Below, piece after piece: positions 48,007-64,000 of a stretch of 64,000 nt of DNA; position 1 is the stretch's first letter; each line of letters begins with the position of its first letter. The notes beneath the pieces were generated by a model. That model saw only the letters and a list, made by a program, of their open reading frames with translations, was not told where the DNA came from and made no database searches. A program made the translations under genes and the position numbers. The DNA is from an uncultured Chloroflexia bacterium (lineage in GTDB: Bacteria; Chloroflexota; Limnocylindria; Limnocylindrales; CSP1-4), in the NCBI GenBank assembly GCA_963806265.1, contig CAWDXT010000027.1, positions 135,214-199,213 of the forward strand. The letters are read 5' to 3'.

Positions 48007-48073
48007 CCGTCCCCTCGAGGCACTGCGCGGCGGGGCGCGTCCCGGATTGACCCGGCCGGGTGCATGACCTATT

Positions 48074-48092
48074 CTCGATAATCGATGATCAG
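48074..48092. promoter_or_regulatory. Candidate operator C: the same heptad repeat, upstream of the SDR-MBL operon.
   Basis: CTCGATA ATCGATG ATCAG. It shares the exact 12-mer TCGATAATCGAT with operator A (62835-62846) and the exact 11-mer AATCGATGATC with operator B (62900-62910). Confidence 0.6.
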
Positions 48093-48891
48093 CGGAGGAA
48101 CGACGGTGCCCCTACTCGACAGGTTCAGGCTCGACGATCGCGTCGCCCTCATCGCCGGCGGCGGGGGCGCCATCGGGTCCGCGATCGGCACGGCGCTCGC
48201 GAGCGCCGGCGCCAGGGTGGTGGTCTGTGACCACTCGGAGGAGCGTGCACAGGCCGCGGCCGACCGGGTCTGCCGGGCCGGTGGCACCTGCCTGGGCGTC
48301 CATGCAGACGTGACCCGGGAGGCCGATGCCGAGCGGATCGTCAGGGAGGCCGTCGACGCGTACGGGCGCCTGGACATCATCGTCAACGCCGTCGGTGGCG
48401 GCGCCGGCAAGGTCCTGTTCGACGCGGAGGCCTACCCACGCGACGCATGGGACTGGATCATGGAGCTCAACGTCCGGAGCACGCTGGTCGCCACCCAGGC
48501 GGCGGTGCGCCAGATGATCGAGAGTGGCAACGGTGGCCGCGTGCTCAACATCTCGTCGGTCCGCGCCCTGCTGGGGATCAACGCCGGCTACTCCGCGTAT
48601 GTCGCCGCCAAGGGCGCGGTCGCCTCGCTGACCCGGCAATGGGCGACCGAGTGGGCGAAGCACGGCATCACGGTCAACGCGATCTCGCCCACGTTCGTCG
48701 ACACGCCGCAGGTGGCGATGCTGCTGGACGACCCGGCATTCAAGTCCGGCATCGAGAGCCGCATCCCGATCGGCCGGATCGGCACCACCGACGACCTGGT
48801 GGGCGCGGCGTTGTTCCTGTGCTCGGATGCGTCGTCGTTCATCACGGGCCAGATCCTGGGCATCGACGGCGGCCTGACCGCGACCCAGTAG
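48085..48891 (+). CDS. Short-chain dehydrogenase/reductase (SDR).
   Basis: ALIAGGGGAIGSAIG, NAVGG, YSAYVAAKGAV (YxxxK). GTG 48106, preceded by GGAGGA at 48094-48099, is the more likely start. Confidence 0.85.
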   Translation: MISGGTTVPLLDRFRLDDRVALIAGGGGAIGSAIGTALASAGARVVVCDHSEERAQAAADRVCRAGGTCLGVHADVTREADAERIVREAVDAYGRLDIIVNAVGGGAGKVLFDAEAYPRDAWDWIMELNVRSTLVATQAAVRQMIESGNGGRVLNISSVRALLGINAGYSAYVAAKGAVASLTRQWATEWAKHGITVNAISPTFVDTPQVAMLLDDPAFKSGIESRIPIGRIGTTDDLVGAALFLCSDASSFITGQILGIDGGLTATQ

Positions 48892-48956
48892 CCCGGACAC
48901 GAACAGGAGGCTCGGGCAGCGCGCGCGAAGCGTCGCCCGGCGCTCGGAGGAGACAG

Positions 48957-49874
48957 ATGCAGACGAGCATCGCGCTCGAGATGGAGCAGGTCACCGGCAA
49001 GGTGTTCACGAACACCCGGCTGCGGGGCTGCAACCCGAGCTTCGTGACCACCTCGGAGGGCGTCGTCGTGATCGACACGCCGCAGCTGCCGACCAAGGCG
49101 GTCGCCATGCGCCAGCTGGCCGAAACGCACGGACCCATCCGGTACCTGATCAACACCGAGCACCACGTCGACCACATCTTCGGCAACTACTTCTTCAAGG
49201 GCGCCGGCACGGTCGTCAACCACCGGGCCCTCTGGGAGCGGTTCATGGTGGTGTTCCCCGACCTCGACCCGTTCGCCTATGCGTACGAGTCGATCCCGGG
49301 CGACAACCCCAAGGGCACGGATCTCGACGATCCGGGCGCGGTGGACCTGTGGCCGGATCGCGACGAGTACTACGCGGATCCGAACAAGGGCAAGATCGTG
49401 TTCACCGGCGACCTGACGCTCCACGTCGGCGACCACACGTTCAACCTGCTGCACACGCCGGGCCACACCCCCGGCCAGCTCGCCGTCCACGTGCCCGAGG
49501 AGGGCGTCGTGTTCACGGGTGACACGATCTTCTCGGGCTGCCAGACCTGGCTCATGACCTCCGACGTGGCCCAGTGGCTCGACGCCCTGGAGCGGATCCG
49601 GACGCTCGACTTCGAGACGATCGTGCCGGGGCACGGACCGGTGGTCAGCAGGGACTACCTCGACGTCCAGCGCTCGGTGCTCATGGAGTGGAAGACGGCC
49701 GTCGCCACGGCGATCGCGAAGGGGTGGTCACGGGAGGAGACGATGGAGCGCGTCCACTTCCGCGACCGCTTCGGCCCCGTGGACATCGGGCAGGGCTACA
49801 TGATGGATCACATCCAGACCCTGAACGCGGCGTCGCTCTACGACAAGCTCACCGGGGCGATCCCCGGCGCCTGA
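48957..49874 (+). CDS. MBL-fold metallo-hydrolase.
   Basis: VVIDTPQ...LINTEHHVDHIFGN...LLHTPGHTPGQLAVHVPEEGVVFTGD...VPGHG. GGAGGA RBS lies at 48946-48951. Confidence 0.85.
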   Translation: MQTSIALEMEQVTGKVFTNTRLRGCNPSFVTTSEGVVVIDTPQLPTKAVAMRQLAETHGPIRYLINTEHHVDHIFGNYFFKGAGTVVNHRALWERFMVVFPDLDPFAYAYESIPGDNPKGTDLDDPGAVDLWPDRDEYYADPNKGKIVFTGDLTLHVGDHTFNLLHTPGHTPGQLAVHVPEEGVVFTGDTIFSGCQTWLMTSDVAQWLDALERIRTLDFETIVPGHGPVVSRDYLDVQRSVLMEWKTAVATAIAKGWSREETMERVHFRDRFGPVDIGQGYMMDHIQTLNAASLYDKLTGAIPGA

Positions 49875-49922
49875 GCAGGCGGGACCATGCGCCAAGCGGG
49901 TGACTGCGCAGTCGCCCCGGAC

Positions 49923-49938
49923 CTGCCGTCGACGGCAG
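49923..49938. terminator. Perfect 16-bp palindrome CTGCCGTCGACGGCAG between the convergent MBL and PPDK-like genes. Possible bidirectional terminator stem.
   Basis: Read directly. No U-tract is present, so intrinsic-terminator status is uncertain. Confidence 0.35.
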
Positions 49939-49941
49939 CCC

Positions 49942-52119
49942 CTACGCTCGGCCGGCAGCAACCTCGTCGGCCCGGTTTCGGCCGGCCAGTCGAATGAGGT
50001 CCTCGTGGAGCTCGAACCACACCGAGTGGTAGCTGTCCACCCGTGGTGACGCCACGAACCGGCCGTCACCGCCCTGGGCGGCCTCGTTGGCGCGGTCCAG
50101 CCGGGAGCGGTAGATGCGGAGCCGCGCCGGGCCTCCTTCGAGGCCATCGAGCCACGAACCGGCGTCGGCGTGGAGGGCGGCGAGGTCGGCCATGACGCTG
50201 GCGTCGTAGTCGGCGTCGCCGTGGTCGTTGAACACCTGCTCGCCGTCGATCTCGCGCATCTGCCAGGCCGTGACGGTGGCCTTCATGCGCTGGTCCATGG
50301 CGAGGAACGCGTCGAGCGCGGCGGCTGCTCGCTCGGCACCCCAGGCTGCCGCGTCCCCTGCCAGGCGCTCGCCGGCGGCAGACTTGCCGCGATCGGTCAG
50401 CCGGAACGAGCCGGCGGCTGCCTCCGCGAGCCCATCTGACACCAGGTCGTCGAGGAGTCCGGTCGCGGTTGCCTCGTCGCCGCCGATCGCGGCCGCGAGC
50501 GCGTCGGGCGCCGCATAGCCCTTGATCGCGAGCGCGCGAATGGCGGCGTCAAGCGGGTCGCCGTCGATCGCGCCCGGCTCGTCGGGCGCGGCCGTTGTCC
50601 GCGGGCTCACGGCGGCTGGCTCGGTCGCGGAGGCTGGCTGCTCGGTCGCGGAGGCCGCATCGATCTCGATCCCGAGCTCACGGGCCCAGGCCAGCAGCGT
50701 GGCCGCCTCGGGCACCACCTCGACCCGGCCCCCGACCGCGCCCTCGAACACGTCGCCGGTTGCGCCATCGATCGTGATCGTCTCGCCCGCGGCGAGACGC
50801 CGCCCGTCGATCTCGATGTGATCTCCCGACACCACCAGGTGAGAGGCTCCCACCACCGCGGGGATCCCCCAGCCGCGTGCAACCACCGCCGCGTGGCTGG
50901 CGAGGCCGCCGCTCGCGGTGAGGATCCCGGCCGCTCGCGCCATGCCGTGCACGTCGTCGGGCGAGGTCTCGGCCCGGACGAGGACCACGGCTCGGCCGGC
51001 GTCGGCGGCCTCGATCGCGCCATCGGGCGTGGTGACGATCTCGCCCGTGGCCACGCCGGGCGATGCCGGCAGGCCCCTGGCCAGCGGCACCGCATCATCG
51101 CGGCCGATCATCGTGGTCGGCGGATCGGCGAGGATGGCGGCGACACGCCGCACCGCCTCGTCGCGCGTCACCGGGAGCTCGTCATCCTCGGCCATGTCGC
51201 GCGCGATCCGGAGCGCAGCCTGGGGGCTGCGCTTGCCGACCCGGCACTGGAGCATCCACAGGCGCCCGTGCTCGACCGTGAACTCGATGTCGCACAGGTC
51301 CGCGTTGTGCCGCTCGAGCCGCGCCGCGTGCGCCCGCAGCTGCGCTGCCACGTCGGGCATCCGCTCGTCGAGGACCGCGAGCGGCTCGGTCTGATGGGCT
51401 CCCGCCACGACGTCCTCGCCCTGCGCATTGAACATGAAGTCGCCGTACGGCTCCGGGGCACCGGTAGCCGGGTTGCGCGTGAACAGGACCCCGGTGCCCG
51501 AGTCCACGCTGCGGTTCCCGAACACCATGGCCTGGACGGTGACCGCCGTGCCCAGCTCGTCCGGGATCCCCTCCCGCTGGCGGTAGGTGCGTGCCCGGGG
51601 GCTGTTCCAGGACCGGAACACGGCCTCGATCGCGCCCCGCAGCTGGACCCACGGGTCGGCCGGCACGTCGGCCACGCCCACGATCTCGCGGTACATGGCC
51701 TCGAACCGCTTGCGGCAGTTGGCGGCGAACTTCGGGCTCGACGCCCGATCGGCCAGACCGTCGGTGGTCGCGTCGTTGAGCCCGAGGTTGAGGATCGTGT
51801 CCATCATCCCCGGCATCGACACCGCGGCCCCGGAGCGCACGCTGACCAGCAGCGGGTCGGACGGGTCACCGAATCGATGGCCCACCACCTGCTCGATGTG
51901 CGTCATGTGCTCGCGCAGCTCCGCATCGAGGCCATCCGGCCAGCCATGCGCGAGGTACTCGTTGCAGGCGTGGGTGGAGATCGTGAACGCCGGCGGCACC
52001 GGCAGCCCGAGCTCGGCGGCCATGACCGACAGGTTCGCTGCCTTGCCTCCCAGCAACGACCTGACCTCCGCGAAGGTCATGTCGTCGAGGCGGTCGTCGC
52101 AGTCGAACACGTAGGTCAC
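49942..52119 (-). CDS. Pyruvate,phosphate dikinase-like protein. It has the ATP-grasp nucleotide domain and the swivel phospho-His domain, but the PEP/pyruvate TIM-barrel is replaced by an unrelated domain of about 200 aa.
   Basis: LLGGKAANLSVMAAELGLPVPPAFTIST...LLVSVRSGAAVSMPGMMDTILNLGLND...GTAVTVQAMVFGN...GTGVLFTRNP...GEDVVAG...IEFTVEHGRLWMLQCRVGKR. The swivel is TASGGLASHAAVVARGWGIPAVVG (His about residue 409). Residues about 520-725 (LAIKGYAAPDALAAAIGGDEATATGLLDDLVSDGLAE...WFELHEDLIRLAG) have no PPDK barrel motifs. Confidence 0.8.
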   Translation of the reverse strand: MTYVFDCDDRLDDMTFAEVRSLLGGKAANLSVMAAELGLPVPPAFTISTHACNEYLAHGWPDGLDAELREHMTHIEQVVGHRFGDPSDPLLVSVRSGAAVSMPGMMDTILNLGLNDATTDGLADRASSPKFAANCRKRFEAMYREIVGVADVPADPWVQLRGAIEAVFRSWNSPRARTYRQREGIPDELGTAVTVQAMVFGNRSVDSGTGVLFTRNPATGAPEPYGDFMFNAQGEDVVAGAHQTEPLAVLDERMPDVAAQLRAHAARLERHNADLCDIEFTVEHGRLWMLQCRVGKRSPQAALRIARDMAEDDELPVTRDEAVRRVAAILADPPTTMIGRDDAVPLARGLPASPGVATGEIVTTPDGAIEAADAGRAVVLVRAETSPDDVHGMARAAGILTASGGLASHAAVVARGWGIPAVVGASHLVVSGDHIEIDGRRLAAGETITIDGATGDVFEGAVGGRVEVVPEAATLLAWARELGIEIDAASATEQPASATEPAAVSPRTTAAPDEPGAIDGDPLDAAIRALAIKGYAAPDALAAAIGGDEATATGLLDDLVSDGLAEAAAGSFRLTDRGKSAAGERLAGDAAAWGAERAAAALDAFLAMDQRMKATVTAWQMREIDGEQVFNDHGDADYDASVMADLAALHADAGSWLDGLEGGPARLRIYRSRLDRANEAAQGGDGRFVASPRVDSYHSVWFELHEDLIRLAGRNRADEVAAGRA

Positions 52120-52183
52120 GGAAGGTCCTCCTCGCTGTGCGCACGACGCCGGTCGCCGACGGCCCCGTGCCCGGACACAGGCG

Positions 52184-53228
52184 TCACGGGTGGACGATGA
52201 TCTTGATCGCGTGCTGCCCCCGGTCGCCGAAGGTCTCGATCGCCGCCGGGTAGTCGGCGAGGTCGAAGGTGTGCGTGATCAGCTCGCGAACGCGCATCCG
52301 GCCCCCGACGATGAGCGGCATCACGTGGCGCATCTCGCCCGCCGACGCACGCGACCCGACCAGCTCGAGCTCGTCGAGCACCAGGCGCTGCAGGCCAAGC
52401 CCGACGTCGGTGGTCGGGATGCCCACCACGCGCGCAGCGGCCACCACGACGCAGCATGTCGAGCCCCCAGCGGATCGTCTCGGGCACCCCGGCGCACTCG
52501 AGGACGACGTCGACGCCCAGGCCACCGGTGCGTTCCCGGATCTCGGCCGCGGGATCGCCGGCCTCCGAGTCCACGATCTCGAAGCCGAGCTCGGCCGCCC
52601 GGGACAGTCGCCAGCCGCGGCCCACGACGATCACGCGCCCGGCCCCGCGAATGCGAGCCGCGTCCGCGGACAGCAGCCCGATCGAGCCGGCGCCGATGAT
52701 CGCGACCGTGTCACCCGGCCGGTTGCCGCCGCGGTTGGCGACGTGGAGCGCGATCGACGCCGGATCGACGAGGGCGCCCTCGTCGAACGAGAGCTCGTCG
52801 GGCAGCGGGAACACCGCCTTCACGCCGTGCACCACGTAGGTCGCGTCGGAGCCCTGGACGTTGTGCCCGTACTGGCGGTGCAGCCCTGGCTTGCCGTAGC
52901 TCTCGCACAGGTTGTAGCGGCCTTCGACGCACATCCGGCACACGCCGCACGCGTCGTGGCTGGTGCCCGCCACCCGGTCGCCGACCTTCCAGCCGTATCG
53001 CTCCGCGCCCGGACCCAGCGCGACCAGCTCACCGGCCCACTCGTGGCCCGGGATGAACGGGAACGACGGCGGCCAGAAGCCCGGATAGTCGCCGTGGATC
53101 AGGTGGACGTCGGTGCCGCAGATCGACACCGCCCGAACCCGGGCCATGACCTGGTCGCGGCCGGGGCTGGGGACCGGGACGTCCTGGATCTCGAGCCGCC
53201 CGGGCCCGGCGACGACCAGCGCCCGCAT
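52184..53228 (-). pseudogene. Zinc-dependent medium-chain alcohol/polyol dehydrogenase with one frame break near 52440.
   Basis: MRALVVAGPGRLEIQDVPVP...ICGTDVHL...GHEWAGELV...CGVCRMCVEGRYNLC...IIGAGSIGLL. It continues as VVGIPTTDVGLGLQRLVLDELELVGSRA...ITHTFDLADYPAAIETF in ORF 52184..52525. Confidence 0.85.
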
Positions 53229-53307
53229 CGTGCCCGGCGTGGGAGTTCCGGGCGTTGGGGTCTTGGGCGTAGGCCCTTCGGACGCGCTGGCTCCGGGCGT
53301 GGTCACG

Positions 53308-55572
53308 TCACGCCACCTCGCCCGTGCGGTCCCGCTCCTGGATGGCTCGCCACACGCGCTCCGGCGTGAGCGGCAGGTCACGGATCACGGCGCCGCACGC
53401 CTCGCGCACCGCGGCGGCCACGGCCGGCGCGGTGCACAGCAGCGCACCCTCGCTCATCCCCTTGGCACCGAACGGCCCCGGCCCGTCGGCGTTCTCGACC
53501 GTCTCGCTGACCATCTCGAGCGGCAGGTCCATCGAGGTCGGGATCCGGTAGTCGATGGCGCCCAGGTTCCGGATCCGTCCGGCATCGTCGTAGATGTAGT
53601 GCTCCATCAGGGTGTGACCGAGGCCCATGATCGCGGCCCCCTCGTCCTGCATCCGGACCTGGAGCGGGTTGATCGAGCGCCCCACGTCGGACACCGTCAC
53701 GTGCTTCACCAGCGTGACGTCGCCGGTGTCCTCGTCGACCCTCGCCTCGATCGCGGTGCAGTTGAACTCGAAGAACGCCGGAGCGCCGCCCAGCGGGTGA
53801 CCGGGCTCCGCCTCCTTGCGCGCCTCGCCGTTGCCGATCAGCTCGCCGCCCAGGCGACCGAGCCCCGGCTTGAGCACCTCGAGCACGGTGAGCTCCCGGT
53901 CCGGCAGGTGAATCACGCCACCCTCGACCGTGATCTGCGATTCGTCGAGCTCGTGGAGCCGCGCCGCCATCGCGCGCAGCTGTGCCTGGATCGAGCGGCA
54001 GGCGCTCAGGACGGCATTGCCCATGAGCACGGTCGAACGGCTGGCCGAGGTCTGCTGGTCGTAGGGCACGACCGCGGTGTCGCCCATGACCACCGTGACC
54101 CAGTCGAGCGGGGCGCCCAGCTCCTGGGCGGCGATCTGGGCCAGCACGGTCCGGGCCCCCTGGCCCATGTCGGAGGTGCCTGCGAACACGACCACGCTGC
54201 CGTCGGCGAGCAGCCGGACGGTCGAGTACGACAGGCCGGTCGTCGGGCCCGACTTGATGCCCACGGCGATCCCCCGCCCGTGGCCTGCCGGCAGGGGCGT
54301 GTCCCAGCCGATCAGCTCGGCTGCCTTCTGAACGCTCTGCTCCCACTCGCCGTCCGCGGGGGTGTCGAACGGGATGAAGGCATCGCCCCTGTGCGCGAGG
54401 TTCATCAGGCGCAGCTCGAGCCGGTCGATGCCCAGGGCGCGGGCACCCTCGTCGAGGTTCGACTCCACGCCCCAGTTCACCTGCGGGTAGCCAAAGCCGC
54501 GGAACGCGGTCGAGGGCGTGGTGTGCGAGAGCACGCTGCGGGCGGCGATCCGGGCGGCGGGCACGTTGTACGGGCCGCAGGCGGGATAGCTGCCCTTGCC
54601 CACCACCCGGTCCGCGATGTCCGCGTAGGCCCCGATCAGGTAGTCGGCCTTGATGTCCTGGAAGGCCAGCGTGCCGTCCGCCTGGAACCCGGTGCGGACG
54701 CGGACCTCGCACGCGGCGCGACGCACGGCCTGGAACGTCTGCTCCAGGGTCAGCACGAGGCGGACGGGTCGACCGGTGCGAAGCGCGGCGAACGCCACCA
54801 GCGGCTCGTACTTCGCGTGCTGCTTGCCGCCGAACCCGCCACCCGGGTCGGGAGCGATCACGCGCACCCGCGACAGCGGCAGGCGGAGCACCTCGGCGAT
54901 CACGCGCTGGAGCCAGTTCGGATGCTGGATCGAGCTCCAGACGCGGATGCCGTCCCCGTCCGGCGCGGCCATGAACGCGTGCGGCTCGATGGCGAACTGG
55001 GTGACCATCGGGAAGGTGTAGCTGTTGTCGATGACGAGGTCGGCCGTCGCCGCATCGACATCGCCCCATCCGACGCGGTGCTCGCGCAGGACGTTGGTCG
55101 CGGCCAGCGGATCGTCGGGACGCAGCGCCGGGTCCTGGACGAGCGGCGCATCCGGCGCGAGCGCGGCCGCGACCGTGAACACCGCCGGCAGCTCCTCGTG
55201 GTCGACCGCGACCAGGCCGGCCGCCTCCTCGGCCGCGTCTCTCGTGTCCGCGACCACGATCGCGACCGGGTCGCCGTGGTACTTGGTCTCGCCCACGGCG
55301 ATCACGGGCCGATCGGTGAACTGGGGACCGAAGCGCGGCACCGGCTGGGGCAGGTCGCCGGCGGTCAGGACCGCCCGGCAGCCGGGCACCCGTAGCGCAG
55401 CGGCGGTGTCGATCGCGTTGATACGAGCCCGGGCGACGTCGAGCGTCACGAGCTTCGCCTCGAGCATGTCCGTGGGGCGGATGTCGGCAACGTACGGCTG
55501 GGCGCCGGTCACCCGGCCGATCCCGCCGACCCGGTTGGGCGAGCTGCCGACGCGACCCTCGAGCACGCTCAT
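53308..55572 (-). CDS. Xanthine dehydrogenase-family molybdopterin-binding large subunit (CoxL/aldehyde-oxidase-like).
   Basis: RVTGAQPYVADI...AVGETKYHGDPVAIVVA...DPGGGFGGKQ...FRGFGYPQ...GTSDMGQGARTVLAQIAA...PFGAKGMSEGAL. There is no CODH-type VAYRCSFR loop. The start ATG 55572 overlaps the small-subunit stop. Confidence 0.9.
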   Translation of the reverse strand: MSVLEGRVGSSPNRVGGIGRVTGAQPYVADIRPTDMLEAKLVTLDVARARINAIDTAAALRVPGCRAVLTAGDLPQPVPRFGPQFTDRPVIAVGETKYHGDPVAIVVADTRDAAEEAAGLVAVDHEELPAVFTVAAALAPDAPLVQDPALRPDDPLAATNVLREHRVGWGDVDAATADLVIDNSYTFPMVTQFAIEPHAFMAAPDGDGIRVWSSIQHPNWLQRVIAEVLRLPLSRVRVIAPDPGGGFGGKQHAKYEPLVAFAALRTGRPVRLVLTLEQTFQAVRRAACEVRVRTGFQADGTLAFQDIKADYLIGAYADIADRVVGKGSYPACGPYNVPAARIAARSVLSHTTPSTAFRGFGYPQVNWGVESNLDEGARALGIDRLELRLMNLAHRGDAFIPFDTPADGEWEQSVQKAAELIGWDTPLPAGHGRGIAVGIKSGPTTGLSYSTVRLLADGSVVVFAGTSDMGQGARTVLAQIAAQELGAPLDWVTVVMGDTAVVPYDQQTSASRSTVLMGNAVLSACRSIQAQLRAMAARLHELDESQITVEGGVIHLPDRELTVLEVLKPGLGRLGGELIGNGEARKEAEPGHPLGGAPAFFEFNCTAIEARVDEDTGDVTLVKHVTVSDVGRSINPLQVRMQDEGAAIMGLGHTLMEHYIYDDAGRIRNLGAIDYRIPTSMDLPLEMVSETVENADGPGPFGAKGMSEGALLCTAPAVAAAVREACGAVIRDLPLTPERVWRAIQERDRTGEVA

Positions 55573-56135
55573 TGGTCCAACCCGTCCGCGCTGCTGCGCG
55601 CGCCGGCACGTGCGCCACCGGCGGTCGCGGCGGCGTCGACGGCCATCGTTCTGGAGGGGTCCACCGAGCCCGCAGCGACGGCCTGCACGGCCTCGGTGAT
55701 CTGCTCGTACCCGGCGCACCGGCACAGGTTGCCGGCCAGCCCTTCCTGGATCTGGTCGACCGTCGGGTCGGAGACGCGGCGCAGCAGGTCGTCCGCGGCC
55801 ATCAGCTGGCCCGGGATGCAGAAGCCGCACTGGGTAGCGCCGTAGTCGAGGAACGCCTGCTGGATCGGGGACAGCTGCCCGTCGGGACGGGCGAGGCCCT
55901 CGACCGTGGTGATCGCCCCACCGTCGGCTTCCACCGCGAGGACCAGGCACGAGTCGACGATGTGGTCGTTGAGCCGGACGGTGCACGCCCCGCACTCGCC
56001 GACCAGGCAGCACTCCTTGGTCCCGGTCAGCGCGAGGTCGTCGCGCAGGACCTCGAGCAGGGTATGGTGCGCGGCCACCTCGAGCGAGCGGACGCGTCCG
56101 TTCACGGTCATCTCGATCGGGATCAGCTCGGTCAT
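55569..56135 (-). CDS. (2Fe-2S)-binding small subunit of the molybdenum hydroxylase.
   Basis: TGTKECCLVGECGACTV...CLVLAVEADG...TQCGFCIPG...LCRCAGY. Confidence 0.9.
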   Translation of the reverse strand: MTELIPIEMTVNGRVRSLEVAAHHTLLEVLRDDLALTGTKECCLVGECGACTVRLNDHIVDSCLVLAVEADGGAITTVEGLARPDGQLSPIQQAFLDYGATQCGFCIPGQLMAADDLLRRVSDPTVDQIQEGLAGNLCRCAGYEQITEAVQAVAAGSVDPSRTMAVDAAATAGGARAGARSSADGLDQ

Positions 56136-57004
56136 CGTGCTCGCTCCTCGGCCGCCAGCCGGCTGGTCGCTGTCGCCAGCGCCCGCCAGCCGAGCACGCG
56201 CAGCATCGCGAGCCGGTAGTCGGGGCCGGCCCGCATCGAACGTGGGGACGGGCTGGCGTCGACGAACATGCGCTCCAGGATCGAGGCGCGGTCGACATCG
56301 GGCGCCGATGGGTCCGCGAGGACGCCCGTCGTGTCGGTGACCAGGAGCGGTCGCGGTCCGACGCTGCCGTAGGCGAGTCGCGTGACCCCGGCCGCATCGA
56401 CGCCACAGGCCAGCGTGACCGACGCCAGGTCGTGCCCACGGCGCCGCGTCCGCCGCTGGTGCGCCGAGCCCATGCGCGGCCAGTCGAGCGGCAGCTCGAT
56501 CGAGGTGACCAGCTCGCCACGCCCGAGCGTGGTCACGCCCGAGCGCACGAACAGCTCGTCGATCGGGATCCTGCGGCGGCCGTCGGGACCCGTCACCACG
56601 ACCTCGGCCCCGTAGACGAGCAGCGAGGGCGCGGTGTCCGCGGCGGGCGACGCGTTGCACAGGTTTCCGGCAAGCGTCGCGCGATTTCGGATCTGGACGG
56701 AGCCGACCACGGCGGCCGCCTCGGCCAGCGCCGTGAACCGGCGCCGGACCCGCACGTCGGCAGCGATGTCGGTCATCACCGTGGTTGCCCCGATCACCAG
56801 CCGCCCGTCAACCTCGCGGATCGCCGGATCGAGCTCGCGTATGCGCTTGACGTCGATCACGACCGACGGGCGGGCCGAGCCGTCCCGAAGCCGGATGATC
56901 AGGTCCGTGCCGCCCGCGATCAGCCGTGCGTCGGTGCCGTGCTCGGCGAGCAGGGCCACGGCGTCCGCCATGGCCCTGGGTCGCTGGTAGCTGAACGCCC
57001 GCAT
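56132..57004 (-). CDS. FAD-binding medium subunit of the molybdenum hydroxylase (CoxM-like).
   Basis: ARLIAGGTDLIIRL...IRNRATLAGNLCNASPAADTAP... Confidence 0.9.
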   Translation of the reverse strand: MRAFSYQRPRAMADAVALLAEHGTDARLIAGGTDLIIRLRDGSARPSVVIDVKRIRELDPAIREVDGRLVIGATTVMTDIAADVRVRRRFTALAEAAAVVGSVQIRNRATLAGNLCNASPAADTAPSLLVYGAEVVVTGPDGRRRIPIDELFVRSGVTTLGRGELVTSIELPLDWPRMGSAHQRRTRRRGHDLASVTLACGVDAAGVTRLAYGSVGPRPLLVTDTTGVLADPSAPDVDRASILERMFVDASPSPRSMRAGPDYRLAMLRVLGWRALATATSRLAAEERAR

Positions 57005-57015
57005 CGCCGCCGCTC

Positions 57016-57909
57016 CTACAGGATCCGATCGACCTCATCCAGGAGAACCTGGGGGGTCGCCGCGCGGATGAAGAAGAACGGCCGCTCGCAGAAGCTGGCC
57101 ACGAAGGCCGCGCGCCGCTGGCGCAGATGATCGTTGTCGAGCATCGGGATCACGTGCCCGGGCGCCAGCAGCTCGTTGGTCAGGAAGTAGTTCTGGAGGC
57201 TGTGCAGGAACTGGAACTGCGCCTCGAACGGGATCAGCTCGTTGGCCGCGGCATCGAAGTTGCCGTCGATGGCGGGCACGATGACCAGGTCGATGTTCGG
57301 CGCCTCGCCCTCGTACATCGCCCAGGTCGGCATCACCGGGCCCCAGAACTTCTCGACGCCCTTGTTGGGTGCGGCCTTGTCGGAGCGCTCGGTGCCCTCG
57401 GTGCGCTTGACGAGGAACGGCTCGACCGAGCCCATCACCGCCCGGCCGTCCTCGCTGACGACCGTGGTCTCCGAGGCAACCTGGAGCCCACCGCGAACGC
57501 CGGCCTCGATGAGGCCCATCGACTTGCCATGGTTGGACTCGCCGCCCAGGAACAGGAAGGTCCTGCCGCGGTACTGGACGGCTGCGCTGTGCGAGGGGTG
57601 GAGGCCCACGTCCTCCATGCGCAGCGCGAGGACCGCCACGATCACCTTCTGGAGGGGGCCCGCGGGCCAGGGCCCGGTGAACGTCACCGTCCGCCCGTCG
57701 TAGCGCACCGCCTTCTCGCCGTCCTGGTGCCACGTGATGTCCGGGGCCGCCAGCGTGATCTCGGGCGAGATCCGAACGTCGGCGAGGCGGTAGTTGAGGA
57801 ACGTCAGGTCGTCGAGCACGTGGTCACGGGGCGCGCCGCCGTAGACGTCCACGCGGAGGCGTGCGGCGCCGGCCGAGAACTCCTCCGTCAGTTGCAGCTG
57901 ATCGTTCAT
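57016..57909 (-). CDS. HPr kinase/phosphorylase C-terminal-domain-like P-loop protein.
   Basis: LHPSHSAAVQYRGRTFLFLGGESNHGKSMGLIEAGVRGGLQVASETTVV lines up with the HprK-type pattern H-A-S-x-V...G-x-S-G-x-GKS...G...L-V-x-D-D. The start ATG 57909 is chosen inside ORF 57016..58167. Confidence 0.6.
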   Translation of the reverse strand: MNDQLQLTEEFSAGAARLRVDVYGGAPRDHVLDDLTFLNYRLADVRISPEITLAAPDITWHQDGEKAVRYDGRTVTFTGPWPAGPLQKVIVAVLALRMEDVGLHPSHSAAVQYRGRTFLFLGGESNHGKSMGLIEAGVRGGLQVASETTVVSEDGRAVMGSVEPFLVKRTEGTERSDKAAPNKGVEKFWGPVMPTWAMYEGEAPNIDLVIVPAIDGNFDAAANELIPFEAQFQFLHSLQNYFLTNELLAPGHVIPMLDNDHLRQRRAAFVASFCERPFFFIRAATPQVLLDEVDRIL

Positions 57910-57952
57910 GCGGTCCTTTCGGGGTCGGGTTGCGGGTCGACGGGCACGCAGA

Positions 57953-58705
57953 TCATGGGGCGGGCGCCGCCTGCCGGTCTCGCCGGTCACCGGCGGCCGG
58001 CCTGCGCGGCGGCGACGGTGGTCGCTGTGGCGCGAGCGGGGCCGTGGCGGCCGAGTCCCAGGCCGCCCGAAGACGGTCTGCCGTGGTGGCGAAGTGCTCG
58101 CGATACGTGCGATCGGCCTCGATCGGATCCCGGCGCCGGAGCGCGTCCAGGATCGGCTGGTGCTCATCGGCCACCGAGCGACGTTCCCCGCCCGGGACCG
58201 CGAGCGTGATGTACGTGCGTGACGACGGCTCGAGCGTGCGCCAAACGCGGTTCAGAGTCTGGTTGCCGGACAGGACGATCACGCGCCCGTGGAACTCGGC
58301 GTCGGCCGCCGCCTCGGCCCGCGCATCGCCGGCGTCGGCGGCTGCTCGCATCGCGGCGATCATCGCCTCGAGCCCGTCGATGTCCTTCTGTGTCAGATGC
58401 GGGATCGCGAGTCGAGCGCCGAGCGACTCGAGCTCGGCACGGATCGCGAACCCCTCGAGCAGCTCGTCCGTCGTGGGACGGCGGACGCGGGCTCCCCGGA
58501 AGGCCGTGGTCTCCACGACCCCCAGCGCCTCGAGGTCACGTAGTGCCTCGCGGACGGGCGCCTGGCTGGTGCCCAGGTCACGGGCGACCCGCGTCTCGAC
58601 GATCCGGTCTCCGGGCGCATAGCGGCCGTCGATGATCGCCTCCAGCAGGTGGTCCTTGACCTGGTCGCTCAGGACGCTGCGTGAGATCGAGGGCTGGGGG
58701 GGCAT
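57953..58705 (-). CDS. GntR-family transcriptional regulator (FadR/FCD subfamily).
   Basis: LSDQVKDHLLEAIIDGRYAPGDRIVETRVARDLGTSQAPVREALRDLEALGVVE (wHTH), followed by an all-helical FCD-like domain (EFHGRVIVLSGNQTL...ADEHQPILDAL). Confidence 0.85.
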   Translation of the reverse strand: MPPQPSISRSVLSDQVKDHLLEAIIDGRYAPGDRIVETRVARDLGTSQAPVREALRDLEALGVVETTAFRGARVRRPTTDELLEGFAIRAELESLGARLAIPHLTQKDIDGLEAMIAAMRAAADAGDARAEAAADAEFHGRVIVLSGNQTLNRVWRTLEPSSRTYITLAVPGGERRSVADEHQPILDALRRRDPIEADRTYREHFATTADRLRAAWDSAATAPLAPQRPPSPPRRPAAGDRRDRQAAPAP

Positions 58706-58715
58706 GATCGGCGCC

Positions 58716-60497
58716 CTAGGAACCGACGCCCACGAGCGGGCGGTCCGGAGCCGTTGACAGGATGGTGACGACACCCTTCCTGGGGTTGCTGGCGTCGACC
58801 CGGATCCGGTCCCCGGTCTTGATGCGCGTGGTCCCCATCGAGGTGCCGACGACGGCAGGGATGCCGTACTCGCGCGCCAGGACGGCCGGATGGGACGCGG
58901 TGCCGCCGGCGTCGGTCACCACCGCGATGATCTTGCCGTACAGCACCTGCCAGGCCGGGTTGGTCATCTCGCACACCAGGATCTCCCCGTCCTGCAGGCC
59001 GTCGAACTCGCTCTCGGACAGGACGACGCGGGCGACCCCTTCGATCACGCCGGGAGACCCGGCGATGCCTTCGACCGTGTCCTGCTGTCCTTCGGCCGAG
59101 CGATGGAACTTCTCGGGGAAGCCCCACAGACCGAGGTACGGGAACGCCAGCTGGGTCTCGGTCGCCGTGCCGACCCAATCGCGCGGACGCGTCCGCTCCG
59201 CCTCGGCGCGCCTGGCCCGCGCCGCAGCGACGATCGCGCGGCCGTCGATCCCGGTCGGATCGCCGATGAACGCTCGCAGCTCGTTGTAGTGGAACATGAT
59301 CACGTCGTCGGGGCGGTCGAGCACCCCCATGTCGACCAGCTTCTCGCCGAGCGCGATGAGCACCAGGCGGACGTGCGCGTTGGCACCCTGGTCGATGTAG
59401 AAGTGATGGTCCGGCGTGAGCGGCGCCATCCGAAGGTTGATCTCGTTGGCGGCGCGCATCTCCTCGAGCGCCTCACCCTCGAGCCCCTCGAGGATCTCCG
59501 TGGCCGCCGCGTCGATGTCGGCCTTCAGCTTCGCAACGGCGCGCGGATAGTCGTAGCCCGACGCGTACTGGTCGCGGACGAGCTGGATCACCGGCGTCAT
59601 GTCCTCCCGGAAGCTGGGGAAGATGAACTCGTGGCTCCAGACGGCGTGCCAGCCGAACTCGTTCTGATACGGCACCACCCGCTCGTCGATGAAGCGGCGA
59701 CCCCTGTCGCTGGCCTTGAGCGCCGGGATGATCTCGACCGCGGACGGGCTCCCGAACGCCGCCGCGAGCTCGGCGTCCGCCTTGACCTCCTCCTTCATCT
59801 CCCACAACGCCCGGATCTTGTCCCAGTTGCGGTCGCTCGCCGATGCCTGCAGCCGGCCCAGGAGGACCTCGTCGATGCTGCCATGGGTCTTCTCCATGAC
59901 CGCCCGGAGGTTGAGGGTGGCGCTCAGCTGCGCGAAGTTCAGCATCCAGTGGATCTTCCAGTGGCGATCGTGCATGTCGATCGCGTCCTCGAGCAGGACC
60001 GCGACCTCCGCGAGGCTCATCTCGTCCTTTCGATCGAGCATGCTCTCGAGGTAGTCGAAGTTGCGCTGCATCTCGGGCACGAACCGCGTCCGCCACCACT
60101 CGACGAACCGTTGGCCGTAGACGGGCAGGACCGCGCCGAGGTAGGCCCCGATCCGTCCCGCGTACGCATCGTCCCGGGGCACGATCGCCCGAGTGGCAAG
60201 GTCGTACTCCTGGGTCACGACCTCGAGGCCGTTCTCGGCAGGGATCGCCGCCGTGTACAGGTAGCCGTTGACGTTCTTGTAGATCCAGTCCGTCGCGAAC
60301 GGCGTCCCGAAGCGCCGGAACATGTGGTCGCAGCTCAGCCACCAGCCACCGATGTCCTCGTACATCGGGCTCAGCGGCTTGGGGCAGTGGAGATCGTCGT
60401 AGACCCAGAACAGGAGCTGCTCGGTCTCCGACGACCATTCGATGGGGAACGACGCATCCCCCAGGAACTGGTCGAGGACTTTCTCCTTCAGGGGCAC
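58716..60497 (-). CDS. PEP-utilising-enzyme mobile (swivel phospho-His) domain protein with a helical N-terminal region of about 450 aa and unknown function.
   Basis: C-terminus GVIEGVARVV...GEILVCEMTNPAWQVLYGKIIAVVTDAGGTASHPAVLAREYGIPAVVGT. The N-terminal region has no ATP-grasp motifs. The overall layout recalls the His-carrying subunit of phenylphosphate-synthase-type enzymes. Confidence 0.7.
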   Translation of the reverse strand: MPLKEKVLDQFLGDASFPIEWSSETEQLLFWVYDDLHCPKPLSPMYEDIGGWWLSCDHMFRRFGTPFATDWIYKNVNGYLYTAAIPAENGLEVVTQEYDLATRAIVPRDDAYAGRIGAYLGAVLPVYGQRFVEWWRTRFVPEMQRNFDYLESMLDRKDEMSLAEVAVLLEDAIDMHDRHWKIHWMLNFAQLSATLNLRAVMEKTHGSIDEVLLGRLQASASDRNWDKIRALWEMKEEVKADAELAAAFGSPSAVEIIPALKASDRGRRFIDERVVPYQNEFGWHAVWSHEFIFPSFREDMTPVIQLVRDQYASGYDYPRAVAKLKADIDAAATEILEGLEGEALEEMRAANEINLRMAPLTPDHHFYIDQGANAHVRLVLIALGEKLVDMGVLDRPDDVIMFHYNELRAFIGDPTGIDGRAIVAAARARRAEAERTRPRDWVGTATETQLAFPYLGLWGFPEKFHRSAEGQQDTVEGIAGSPGVIEGVARVVLSESEFDGLQDGEILVCEMTNPAWQVLYGKIIAVVTDAGGTASHPAVLAREYGIPAVVGTSMGTTRIKTGDRIRVDASNPRKGVVTILSTAPDRPLVGVGS

Positions 60498-60576
60498 CGG
60501 TGCTACCTCCTTGCCTGCCTTGCGTCGTCCCGGCGACGTGTTCCCAGCCGTTGGCCAGTGCGTTCCCGGCCGTTGG

Positions 60577-61416
60577 TCAGTGCGCCGGGGGCGCGGCGCG
60601 CGTGATCATCTTGAAGCGCTGCATGTTCTCGGTGATCGCCACCTCCGTCGGGAGCCGCTCCATGCTCGAGGCGCCGAAGAACCCGGCCACACCGTTCGTA
60701 TGGTCGAGGATGAACTGCGCGTCATCCGGCTCCGCGATCGGGCCACCGTGGCAGAGCACGATGACGTCCGGGTTGACCGCCACCGCAGCATCCCGGATCG
60801 CCTGCACCCGCTCGGCCGACGCCCCGAGCGTGAGCGCGGTGGTGGCACCGATCGCGCCCTTGGTGGTCAGGCCCATGTGGGCCACGACGACGTCGGCCCC
60901 TGCCCCGGTCATCGCCGTCGCCTGCTCCGGGTCGAACACGTAGGGCGTCGTGAGCAGCCCGGCGGCATGCGCCGCTCGGATCATCTCGACCTCGAGCCCG
61001 TAGCCCATGCCGGTCTCCTCGAGGTTCTGGCGGAACTGCCCGTCGCACAGGCCAACCGTCGGGAAGTTCTGGACGCCGGAGAAGCCGACCCGTCTGATCT
61101 CTTCGAGGAACACCGGCATCAGCCGGAACGGATCGGTGCCGCACACGCCGGCCAGCACGGGCGTCTCGCGAACGACGGGCAGCACCTCGCCCGCCATCTC
61201 CATCACGATCGCGTTGGCGTCGCCATAGGGCATCATCCCGGCCAGGGATCCCCGGCCGGCCATCCGGTAGCGACCCGAGTTGTAGATGATGATCAGGTCG
61301 GCGCCGCCGGCCTCGGCACATTTCGCCGACAGCCCGGTCCCGGCACCCGCACCCATGATCACGCCGCCATCGGCGAGCGTCCTCCGCAGCCGCGCGAGCG
61401 CCTCCTGGCCGGTCAT
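60577..61416 (-). CDS. PEP-hydrolase-like TIM-barrel protein (TIM-br_sig_trns family; Tm-1 C-terminal-domain homologue).
   Basis: [51 protein letters not shown]...[12 protein letters not shown]...[11 protein letters not shown]...[12 protein letters not shown] 61416 overlaps the upstream stop (ATGA). Confidence 0.75.
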
Positions 61417-62672
61417 GCTCCTCCTCCATGGATCGAGGCCGTGGCCGGATGAGTCTCCGACCACGCCCGGTACAGCTCGTCGAGCCGGTCCGCCATCGCT
61501 CCTGCAAACGCCGGGTCGTTGATGTCGGTCGCCATCTCGACCACCTCGACGTCCCCGCGGAGACCGGCCCTGAGCTCCCTGACCAGCGCCGCATCGGCGG
61601 CCGGGTCGTGGAACGGCGCATCGGGCACGTCGATCATCGACACGCCGGCCGTCGGGATGAACACCGCCAGCGGACCGCCCGCGGCGTTGAGCTTGCGGGC
61701 CAGGATGCGACCCAGCTCGGCACATTCCGCCTCGGTGGTCCGCATCAACGTGACGGACGCGTTGTGGCGATACAGGTTGCGGTCGCGGAACCGGTCGGGG
61801 ACCGTGTCGAGCGGCCCGAAGTTGACCATGTCCAGCGCGCCCAGCGACACCACCTGGGGCAGCCCCAGCGCTCCGGCGGCCTCCAGCCGGTCGGGCCCGG
61901 CCGACAGCACGCCGCCCACGAGCTCGTCGGCCAGCTCGGTGGTCGTGATGTCGAGCGCCCCCGTGATGAACCCGGCGCGCATCAGCGCCTCCATCGCCTG
62001 GCCACCGGCACCCGTGGCGTGGAACACCAGCACCTCGTAGCCGCGCGCCTCGAGGAGCTCGCGCGCGACCGTGACGCATGGCGTCGTGACGCCGAACATG
62101 GTCGCGCCGATGAGCGGCCTGCCGGGAGCCTGCGTGCCGCGCGACGATGCCGAGCGTGCCATGCCTGCGATCGCGGCCGCGGCATTGTCCAGGATCCGCT
62201 CGGAGATCGCGTTGAGGCCCGCGATATCGACCACCGAGTACAGCATCGCGATGTCGCTGGTGCCGACGTAGGCGCGCGTGTCGCCCGAGGCCATCGTCGA
62301 CACGAGCAGCTTCGGGACGCCGATCGGCAGAGCCCGCATCGCGGCCGAGATGAGCGACGAGCCTCCCGACCCACCGAGACCCACGATCCCGTCGAGCCGA
62401 CCCTCGGCGTGGAGCCGTCGCGCAACCTCCACCGCGCCCCGGGTCATCGCCTCGACGGCCGGGCCACGGTCGCCCGCCGCGGCCAGCGCTGCCCGGTTCT
62501 CGCCCGCGGCGGCTGCCACCGCGTCGGCCGTGATGTCGGCACCCGTCGATGACCCCATCACGCCCGCGTCGACGACGAGCGCGTCGCAGCCGAGCTCGCG
62601 GATCCGGTCGCGGAGGAACTCGTGCTCGGCAGCCTTGGTGTCGAGCGTTCCGAGGACCACGACGACCGCCAT
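61413..62672 (-). CDS. UPF0261 family protein (Tm-1 N-terminal-like ATP-binding domain).
   Basis: [24 protein letters not shown]...[34 protein letters not shown]...[12 protein letters not shown]...[16 protein letters not shown]...[16 protein letters not shown]. Confidence 0.75.
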
Positions 62673-62833
62673 TCGCCACCTTTCCCCGCACGATCCGGCC
62701 CGGCCGGGCCCCGCCTGCGGCACACGTTCGGGCACCCTCGCAGCGCCTGCGCCCCCGGCCCCGGGCACCGAACGCAGCCGTCCGGGCCGGGTGCCTTGCT
62801 GCCGGGTCCTCGGCGCGCTGGTACCCTCGTGAC

Positions 62834-62856
62834 ATCGATAATCGATTGTCGATAAC
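62834..62856. promoter_or_regulatory. Candidate operator A: three tandem 7-bp units built on the palindromic hexamer ATCGAT.
   Basis: ATCGATA ATCGATT GTCGATA AC sits in the 307-bp divergent intergenic region between the UPF0261 operon (minus) and the transaldolase gene (plus). It is AT-rich in a very GC-rich background. Confidence 0.6.
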
Positions 62857-62897
62857 GGTAGGTCGGCCGGCCCGGTCAGTCAAGCCGAACCGGGCGT

Positions 62898-62926
62898 ACA
62901 ATCGATGATCGATGATACCCGATCGG
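62898..62926. promoter_or_regulatory. Candidate operator B: the same heptad repeat.
   Basis: ACA ATCGATG ATCGATG ATACCCG ATCGG, 42 bp downstream of operator A. Confidence 0.55.
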
Positions 62927-62979
62927 CGTCACCCGGAAGGCTGGCCGGTCAGCCGCACGCGAGCGCTGAGGTGCCTTCG

Positions 62980-64000
62980 ATGAGCCCAGCCCCGACGGCA
63001 GCAGGAAGCCCCCTCCTGCGCATGACGCAGACGACCCCGACCCAGTACTGGAACGACTCCTGTGCCGCGGACGACCTCGAGTACGCGATCGATCGCGGGG
63101 CGACCGGCGCCACGTCCAATCCCAGCATCGTGCTCGAGGTGATGCGCTGCGAGCGCGAGCGCTGGGAACCTCGCGTCTTCGAGCTTGCGGCCGCGCACCC
63201 CACGTGGTCCGAGGTTGAGCTCGCGTGGGCCATCAGCGAGGAGATCGCGGTCCGCGCCGCCGGCGTGCTTGCGCCCGTCTTCGAGCGAGCGGAACACCGG
63301 GCCGGGCGGCTGTCATTCCAGGTGGACCCGGCCGACCACCGGGATCCCGATCGCATGCTCGAGCAGGCCGTCCGGTTCGCTGCGCTGGCGCCCAACATCC
63401 AGGTCAAGTTCCCGGTGACGGCTGCCGGCCTCGTGGCGATCGAGGAGGCAACCGCGCGCGGCATCAACATCACGGCCACGGTCTCGTTCACGGTCGCCCA
63501 GGCGATCGCCGCCGCCGAGGCGGTGGAGCGTGGCCTCGACCGGCGCCCGGGCGGCGGCGACGACGGCCATGTGATGGCACCGATGGTCGTGCTCATGATC
63601 GGCAGGCTCGACGACTGGATGAAGGTCCTGGTCGAGCGCGACGCGCTGGCCGTTCATCCGGCGGCGCCGGCGTGGGCCGGGATCGCGGTGTTCAAGCGAG
63701 CGTATGCGCAGTTCCGCGAACGCGGCTATCGGTCGCGTCTGCTGGCGGCTGCCTATCGACACCGGCTCCACTGGACCGAGCTTGTCGGCGCGGACGCCAG
63801 CCTCACGCTGACCCATGCCTGGCAGGTGCGCTTCAATCGCAGCGGAATCGATCCCGGATCCGCGGATCGACATCCCGGTGGATCCGGCGCTCGTCGACGA
63901 CCTGTACCGCCGCGTCCCCGACTTCCGCCGCGCCTACGACCCGGACGGCATGACGCCGGACGAGTTCGAAGGCTACGGTGCGAGCGCCCGGACGCTGCGT
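62980..64000 (+). pseudogene. Transaldolase-family protein. The 3' end lies outside the window and there is one frame break near 63855.
   Basis: This open frame is not in the ORF track because it has no stop inside the window. MTQTTPTQYWNDSCAADDLEYAIDRGATGATSNPSIV...LSFQVDP...IQVKFPVTAAGLVAIEEATARGINITATVSF. After GIDP the homologous text (RIDIPVDPALVDDLYRRVPDFRRAYDPDGMTPDEFEGYGA) continues in another frame. Confidence 0.75.

Follow-up and report, generated by a model that had tools for sequence, protein, structure and literature searches.

Conserved ATCGAT repeats as probable operators of an FCD-type GntR repressor over three core promoters of a Limnocylindria gene cluster

Genes and repeat sites of the locus

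The window (the whole stretch of DNA analysed, 64,000 nt from an uncultured Limnocylindria lineage) contains three putatively co-regulated gene units and three sites built of ATCGAT repeats (Table 1). The SDR-MBL unit on the forward strand and the main operon on the reverse strand converge on each other, and the window ends inside the transaldolase gene of the third unit. The PPDK-like protein encoded at the end of the main operon comprises 725 aa, with residues 1-480 matching pyruvate phosphate dikinase (E=1e-122); the 297-aa protein yielded no Pfam or PDB match. Recent work identified the UPF0261 domain as an aromatic kinase, MarK, and the PEP-utiliser/PPDK_N pair of the cluster recalls the AcvAB/HpeHI dikinases mentioned in the same study (PMC12624787).

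Table 1 Genes, predicted promoters and putative operators in the window (MBL, metallo-beta-lactamase-fold protein).
Feature	Position	Strand	Description and basis
Predicted sigma-70-type promoter of SDR-MBL	48047..48075	+	-35 TTGACC 48047-48052, 17-nt spacer, -10 TATTCT 48070-48075
Operator A (putative)	48074..48090		CTCGAT-A-ATCGAT-GATC, centre 48080, on SDR-MBL promoter; sequence and enrichment
SDR	48106-48891 (GTG)	+	Pfam; RBS GGAGGA 48094-48099
MBL	about 48957-49874	+	Pfam; putative regulated unit 1 (48106..49874) with SDR
Main operon, putative regulated unit 2	49942..62672	-	12.7 kb; Pfam, frame analysis, synteny in 39 loci
PPDK-like protein	49942-52119	-	Last gene of main operon
Zn-ADH (Zn-dependent alcohol dehydrogenase)	52116 to about 53200	-	After Mo-hydroxylase genes, main operon
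CoxM/S/L-type Mo-hydroxylase	53308-57004	-	After 297-aa protein gene, main operon
297-aa protein	57016-57909	-	Fifth gene of main operon; no Pfam match
GntR family, candidate repressor gene	57953..58705	-	Fourth gene of main operon; wHTH and FCD effector domain; 250 aa, start Met-24 of ORF
PEP-utiliser mobile-domain protein	58716-60497	-	Third gene of main operon
PEP-hydrolase-like TIM barrel	60577-61416	-	Second gene of main operon
UPF0261	61413-62672	-	First gene of main operon
Operator B (putative)	62834..62854		ATCGAT-A-ATCGAT-T-GTCGAT-A, three hexamers, 7-bp period, palindrome centres 62840 and 62847
Predicted main-operon promoter	62855..62883	-	-35 TTGACT 62878-62883, 17-nt spacer, -10 TACCGT 62855-62860
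Operator C (putative)	62897..62917		TACA-ATCGAT-G-ATCGAT-GATA, core 62901-62913, centre 62907, on transaldolase promoter
Transaldolase, putative regulated unit 3	62980..64000	+	Pfam TAL_FSA; runs past window end

An earlier note on this DNA had drawn an operon from 48085 to 49874. The unit stands, but the ATG at 48085 lies within the repeat site, and GTG 48106 is the likelier start. We place the SDR start most likely at this GTG, behind its ribosome-binding site, because all 80 SDR orthologues recovered from metagenomes (80/80) align from it as residue 1.

Re-reading of the window reproduced every repeat string on which the earlier note had built its case, namely ATCGATA-ATCGATT-GTCGATA (62834-62854), ATCGATG-ATCGATG (62901-62914) and CTCGATA-ATCGATG-ATC (48074-48090), together with the exact 12-mer TCGATAATCGAT at 48075 and 62835 and the exact 11-mer AATCGATGATC at 48080 and 62900. 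These two words are the longest AT-rich matches common to the two intergenic regions; all other words common to both are GC-rich 8-10-mers, which indicates a short common site rather than a longer repeat. Two further heptads that had been read after the first pair at 62901-62928, ATACCCG and ATCGGCG, are without conservation in relatives and probably reflect chance. In full, site A (48070-48092) reads TATTCTCGATAATCGATGATCAG, site B (62832-62856) reads ACATCGATAATCGATTGTCGATAAC, and site C (62897-62917) reads TACAATCGATGATCGATGATA.

The A+T content of the sites is 64-67%, in surrounding DNA of ~70% G+C, and the suspicion that such AT-rich strings are highly unexpected here was borne out by the counts. 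TCGATNDTCGAT has 6 matches on both strands of the 64-kb window (only at 48074-48090, 62834-62854 and 62901-62913), compared with an expectation of 0.17 from dinucleotide-preserving shuffles. When up to one mismatch is allowed, the 13-mer ATCGATNATCGAT has 4 window matches, all intergenic (0.15 expected), with centres at 48080, 62840, 62847 and 62907 and none elsewhere in the 64 kb. The single ATCGAT hexamer is not enriched in the window (25 vs 18 expected).

The core unit, hereafter the box, spans 13 bp and reads ATCGAT-N-ATCGA(T), an odd palindrome whose TCGA half-sites occupy positions -5..-2 and +2..+5. The symmetrised count matrix reads A-T-C-G-A-T-N-A-T-C-G-A-T, with extra preference for A at ±9, T at ±8 and A/T at the centre. 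Two hexamers are present in 78 of 110 operators and three in the other 32, at a strict 7-bp period; the third hexamer, placed 7 bp further on, often extends the palindrome and is weaker. Two other readings of the sequence were rejected at this level: a LacI-like even palindrome with its centre at the CG of a single hexamer, as the flanks are asymmetric there in two-hexamer sites and the axis is the base between the hexamers; and a ClaI/Dam-type methylation target, as ATCGAT alone is not enriched and GATC occurs in only some variants.

Conservation of the box and the units that carry it

Species-representative genomes were searched with the cluster GntR, yielding 39 orthologous loci (57-85% identity) and 9 distant GntR loci. 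All 39 orthologous loci are Chloroflexota MAGs labelled Limnocylindria/Limnocylindrales or 'uncultured Chloroflexia', which rules out an actinomycete origin of the window; they keep the gene order PEP-utiliser, GntR, 297-aa protein, CoxMSL, (cyclase), Zn-ADH, PPDK-like, with the UPF0261/TIM-barrel pair present in about half. The transaldolase gene is usually divergent from the main operon in relatives, and both sites are kept in the transaldolase/operon intergenic region of nearly every one of the 39 loci.

We then compared the equivalent intergenic regions of related genomes, a check the earlier note had proposed. In an alignment of the transaldolase/operon intergenic region from the window and 8 species (A1; mean identity 46%), the complete list of invariant blocks is TATCATCGATCATCGAT at site C, CTTGAC, and CTA…TT-ATCGACAATCGATTATCGAT, the last spanning the -10 hexamer plus site B; besides the -35/-10 hexamers, only the boxes are invariant, as a 17-nt block at operator C (TATCATCGATCATCGAT) and a 20-nt block at operator B. 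The proposed test of intergenic enrichment, counting boxes with ≤2 mismatches over 39 species-level loci (724 kb), gave 1.72 per kb in intergenic DNA vs 0.077 per kb in called ORFs, a 22-fold difference. Box matches in coding DNA mostly fall on conserved protein motifs (..VSMIDV.., ..GSMVDP..). Two candidate operators were discarded as conserved coding sequence: one inside UPF0261 (TCGATGATCGAC, 61629-61641 of the window), and, in relatives, a would-be fourth operator in the CoxL/Zn-ADH interval (TCGATGGTCGAY), which is the end of the cyclase gene. The comparison confirms the ATCGAT repeats as real, evolutionarily conserved and putatively protein-binding sites.

The box occurs at six or more promoter types: transaldolase/transketolase, main operon, SDR-MBL, Liv-type ABC transporter, EamA exporter and DUF1097/C_GCAxxG. 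In relatives, the transaldolase unit with its box continues into aldehyde dehydrogenase, cupin and split-transketolase genes, and some species have a second box directly 5' of the cupin/transketolase genes. The box also stands 5' of a Liv-type ABC transporter, with the EamA exporter divergent, and 5' of a DUF1097 membrane protein, with a divergent C_GCAxxG gene followed in several loci by a second GntR paralogue. It precedes the functionally linked units wherever these have moved in different genomes.

Site 48074 was tested independently on 80 metagenome contigs carrying SDR orthologues (64-93% identity), 76 of which have enough upstream DNA. A box lies ≤110 nt upstream of the SDR gene in 34 of these 76, almost always in the form TA[T/G]NCT-CGAT-A-ATCGAT-GAT, and a TAnnCT-CGAT-A-ATCGAT-GAT layout also stands upstream of the SDR orthologue in one of the genomic loci (L009). 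In most of the remaining contigs the SDR gene directly follows an aldehyde dehydrogenase gene, and is accordingly internal to an operon. The proposal of a shared operator joining the flanking units into one regulon is thus strongly supported by comparative genomics (39 species' loci and 34 metagenome SDR loci). Judged by sequence, the regulon extends beyond the two bracketing promoters first proposed, and the site at 62901-62913 is the putative control site of the transaldolase(-transketolase) unit. The earlier note had described site A as a divergent promoter region of mmuM and SDR-MBL: the SDR-MBL half holds, with the box on the SDR promoter, but mmuM adjoins the box in the window only and in no relative, and nothing in these loci indicates its membership in the regulon.

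Promoters and the candidate regulator

We searched for promoter elements around the boxes. The scan for SDR-MBL returned 1 promoter against 0.0 expected, and operator A begins in the last bases of its predicted -10, a fusion of -10 and box that is conserved in the metagenome loci. Operator B lies immediately downstream of the predicted main-operon -10; CTTGAC and CTA..TT of this predicted promoter are invariant in A1 at constant spacing, and the TTGAC-17-TAnnnT layout recurs in other loci. Operator C overlaps the candidate -10 hexamers TACAAT (62897-62902) and GATGAT (62911-62916), and in more distant loci its box stands between a conserved TTGCnn -35 and a GAT[GT]AT -10. Across the 110 operators, TAnnnT occupies exactly -10..-5 of the box centre in 48, and -13..-8 in 18 more. 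Given this position on core promoters, the sites are best read as repressor operators; a box that abuts or overlaps the -10 hexamer implies that repression would act by promoter occlusion.

The GntR gene of the main operon encodes an N-terminal wHTH and a C-terminal FCD domain (Pfam for 57953-58774(-): GntR 5e-14, FCD 6e-28), and the identical 250-aa protein exists in public databases. Pfam places the beginning of the GntR domain at residue 12 of the 250-aa protein, equivalent to residue 35 when the ORF is translated from 58774. Its PDB relatives are all FCD-GntR regulators (7xp0 at 2e-23; also McbR, NanR and PdhR), and the best 120 matches of the homologue search are all orthologues with at least 67% identity. 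Of the gene families that travel with the box, GntR alone is a recognised transcription factor, and box B heads the operon that contains it in 39/39 orthologous loci (its gene frameshifted in L037), although the presence of GntR in all of them follows from sampling, since the loci were retrieved with this protein (GntR-A) itself. In alignment A1, the GntR promoter region contains no conserved block besides the box that could serve as a GntR operator.

The reading head of this GntR, …ETRVARDLGTSQAPVREAL… (E-T-R-V-A-R-D-L-G-T-S-Q-A-P-V-R-E-A-L), has Thr at HTH position 28 and Gln at 38 (numbering per PMC4494728). FadR Arg35 and Arg45, the family's G-reading arginines (PMC4494728), correspond to these residues in the PDB-match alignment. 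The Thr/Gln head is consistent with an altered, non-GT operator specificity, of which it may be the protein counterpart.

The window has one GntR copy, whereas relatives have a second and sometimes a third paralogue, next to the transketolase genes. Paralogues A and B share 78% identity in the HTH and 56% in the FCD domain, and their recognition helices are identical; on that basis the second paralogue would be expected to read the box as well.

Proposed mechanism, rival explanations and known operator systems

Taken together, the ATCGAT repeats are probably operators of a local repressor, the FCD-type GntR of the cluster, over three core promoters. A dimer of this GntR would occupy each box, and RNA polymerase would be blocked by the bound box; a small-molecule inducer on the FCD domain would then make the repressor let go and lift repression from all units of the regulon. 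The repressor's own gene would be among those derepressed, a case of negative autoregulation. In relatives, the paralogue beside the transketolase genes may be a further binder, given its identical recognition helix. The existence, conservation and promoter position of the motif, and the units it joins, are read directly from the genomes; from these we infer which protein binds, in which direction it controls transcription, and its release by an effector.

The three-hexamer operators add a complication to this scheme. Their two 13-bp palindromes overlap in the middle hexamer, so that two ordinary dimers cannot read both at once and would account for the heptad phasing only in part. Possibilities are alternative registers, a weak auxiliary box as in the family, or a multi-dimer assembly of the kind seen with NanR. 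We also considered, as a rather unlikely variant, that one operator type is common to several sensors, with homodimers competing for alternative registers or with heterodimers, which would integrate at least two metabolite signals at each regulon promoter. This reading arises because a self-palindromic hexamer at strict 7-bp period coincides with 2-3 paralogues that have the same recognition helices and diverged effector domains; if true, such sharing would amount to a mode of binding for which the GntR family has no described example.

The sites could be true operators of the same regulon bound by another protein, either the wHTH-like C-terminal tail of the PPDK-like protein (an enzyme-regulator fusion) or a regulator encoded elsewhere, and we regard this as unlikely. 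The tail, at about residues 530-585, gives wHTH matches (HVO_A0261_N at E=0.004, HTH_IclR at 0.11 and a DtxR-type PDB repressor at 0.07) that fall far under the Pfam thresholds, at 17 bits vs a cutoff of 35, and the protein co-occurs with the box in most loci, but its residues 1-480 are a bona fide enzyme. Because the tail yields only such sub-threshold matches, GntR is clearly favoured of the two proposed binders, its link to the box being by co-localisation and geometry only. The box does lack the GT/AC hallmark of GntR operators, and tandem palindromic boxes are typical of other repressor classes too, such as MetJ with its metboxes. Against an unlinked factor, a dedicated GntR lies behind box B in every locus, and its promoter would be left without a conserved operator; across the 64 kb + 724 kb, the sites keep to a single functionally coherent set of genes, as expected of a locally encoded regulator; and the orthologous loci show no conserved ORF of at least 70 aa for another regulator.

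The alternative that the repeats are promoter parts, either alternative-sigma elements or an extended -10/discriminator, is very improbable. The box always lies within the core promoter and is fused to the -10 hexamer in many promoters, yet ordinary TTGAC-17-TAnnnT elements are already conserved beside it, and its position varies: fused to the -10, 3 nt after the -10, or in the -35/-10 spacer (transaldolase promoter). Furthermore, a dyad-symmetric site usable in both orientations is typical of dimeric regulators and not of sigma elements. We give almost no weight to action at the RNA level (a leader hairpin or a protein site in the 5' UTR), or to a generic dispersed repeat or chance. At operators A and B the box would be mostly transcribed, being 3' of the -10, and its sequence is self-complementary; however, no hairpin can form from a 6-nt stem closed by a 1-nt loop, the box of many relatives lies upstream of the -10 in the transaldolase promoter and would hence be untranscribed, and the leaders that follow the box span ~45 to 160 nt with no conservation. 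A riboswitch or leader RNA was rejected on the variable leader and on Rfam, which gave no match in 47000-64000 even at E<=1. The statistics given above exclude chance and a dispersed repeat, as does the absence of any similarity beyond the box.

Having weighed these alternatives, we return to the GntR reading and what it would mean for the cluster. Control here is most likely of an ordinary kind, with an unusual recognition sequence. The box offers a dependable marker of co-regulation in a lineage without cultured, genetically tractable members. It would join an unusual enzyme cluster (the MarK-like UPF0261 kinase, two PEP-utiliser/PPDK-like proteins, the CoxLMS-type molybdenum hydroxylase and the 297-aa protein) into one inducible pathway, to which the box also assigns transaldolase and transketolase, the SDR-MBL pair and, in relatives, an ABC importer and an exporter. 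Such joint regulation narrows the substrate hypotheses, and the purified GntR with a 21-bp probe would make a possible inducer screen.

We compared the system with known operators built of repeats. MetJ metboxes are tandem 8-bp palindromic boxes bound by ribbon-helix-helix dimers. Like them, the sites described here place a short palindromic unit head-to-tail two or three times over a promoter; unlike them, they have a period of 7 rather than 8 bp and a candidate binder of another fold, so the analogy is one of site architecture only, and no ribbon-helix-helix gene was seen in the loci. NanR of E. coli is an FCD-type GntR with a (GGTATA)3 operator, two or three tandem hexamers over the promoter, to which three dimers bind cooperatively by way of an N-terminal extension of 32 residues, and it is released by a metabolite of the pathway under its control (PMC8012715). 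Among FCD-GntR regulators it offers the clearest precedent for an operator built of repeats, but its repeats are direct and non-palindromic, whereas the box hexamers are palindromic and their pairs form a dyad; likewise, the cluster GntR has about 11 residues before its HTH domain vs ~32 in NanR. The period of the NanR repeats, 8-9 bp, is longer than the 7 bp of the box.

The closest likeness is to the FadR-subfamily repressors (FadR, LldR, PdhR, ExuR/UxuR, DgoR), which share with the cluster GntR the wHTH + FCD architecture and a gene within a catabolic cluster. Operators of this subfamily are A/T-rich palindromes with TKGT/ACMA boxes, usually 3 nt apart between GT and AC (PMC4494728); the family consensus is NyGTM-N0-1-KACNy, with a GT-AC spacing of 3 nt and sometimes 2 (PMC4494728). 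These operators often have an additional, weaker box at 7-12 nt from the centre, and in divergent promoter regions with double sites each tends to sit near its own operon (PMC4494728). Similarly, the box is A/T-rich, forms an odd palindrome and carries T at ±5 and G/C at ±3, the G at -3 and C at +3 being spaced as in GT-N3-AC, the half-site spacing of TKGT-N3-ACMA; it lies on core promoters (predicted here), a weaker additional box follows 7 nt from the centre, and the divergent region has two sites, each near its own operon. In the window and the 39 relatives, box B heads the operon containing GntR; the other boxes precede linked units. The earlier note had called a 7-bp phasing unusual for GntR operators, which proved half right: the geometry is classical for the FadR subfamily, where extra boxes are common, and the unusual part is the TCGA half-site.

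This half-site departs from TKGT. The GT/AC hallmark is absent, position ±2 is A/T-inverted (A for T), position ±4 has C instead of K, and the box hexamer is itself palindromic and so chainable at a 7-bp period; the reading head differs as well, with Thr and Gln for FadR Arg35 and Arg45, and the host lineage, uncultured Limnocylindria, sets the system apart. All four variants of ATCGAT-N-ATCGA were absent from the searchable text site tables of the 2015 GntR survey (PMC4494728). On sequence grounds the system is best filed as one that would work like a FadR-subfamily GntR repressor and operator with a non-canonical half-site, and a non-GT TCGA half-site paired with a Thr/Gln reading head would be an addition to the catalogue of GntR-family specificities.

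Operon head and predicted leader

We compared the head of the main operon across L001–L039, the 39 orthologous loci from other species that carry an in-operon GntR, and observed the pair formed by UPF0261 and the PEP-hydrolase-like TIM-barrel gene in only about half of them; in loci without this pair, the box (the predicted operator, ATCGAT-N-ATCGA(T)) and the promoter lie directly before the PEP-utiliser gene. According to a 2025 paper (PMC12624787), one UPF0261 protein, MarK, has aromatic-kinase activity. From operator B, the box at the main operon promoter, to the UPF0261 start, the predicted leader is G+C-rich; its length is ~160 nt in the window and the relatives closest to it, and only ~45 nt in others. 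Comparison of the leader with those of relatives revealed no conservation, and an Rfam search of the same stretch returned no match.

Features of the main operon and related loci
Feature	Location	Strand	Remarks
UPF0261 + PEP-hydrolase-like TIM-barrel gene pair	window 60577-62672	(-)	operon head
Predicted leader, operator B to UPF0261 start	window 62673-62830		
297-aa protein	window 57016-57909	(-)	directly after GntR gene
PPDK-like protein tail, residues ~480-725	window 49942-50700	(-)	
Putative cyclase	L001:15441-16340, equivalents in 28 other loci		Pfam PF04199, ~296 aa
Second FCD-GntR paralogue	L001:1583-2275, equivalents in 15 other loci		

Gene content downstream of the regulator

Conservation of the 297-aa protein extends to 38 loci, where its gene directly follows the GntR gene. 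The protein contains a P-loop-like motif (GGESNHGKS); neither Pfam, at a cutoff as loose as E<=10, nor a sequence search of the PDB gave a match. The usual C-terminal PEP/pyruvate-binding domain is missing from the PPDK-like protein and is replaced by a 245-residue tail containing a wHTH-like stretch with sub-threshold family matches only.

A putative cyclase gene lies between the CoxL-type and Zn-ADH genes in 29 related loci. Comparing window positions 53100-53420 with the gene in these loci, we found no such cyclase gene between CoxL and Zn-ADH, nor was there one elsewhere in the 64 kb; the Zn-ADH reading frame in the window starts directly at the CoxL stop codon.

Lineage and GntR paralogues

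Window G+C is ~70%, from which an actinomycete-like affinity had been assumed; this was ruled out, since every close relative of the GntR cluster belongs to a Chloroflexota (Ca. Limnocylindria) MAG. A public contig of 277,527 bp encodes a GntR protein identical to that of the window.

The second FCD-GntR paralogue, absent from the window, adjoins transketolase genes in all 16 of its loci, and a third was observed beside transketolase genes in L031 and L036. The recognition helix of the second paralogue is identical to that of the in-operon GntR, whereas the effector domains are only 56% identical. In several loci, the same box precedes either the gene for this paralogue or the C_GCAxxG gene that lies before it.
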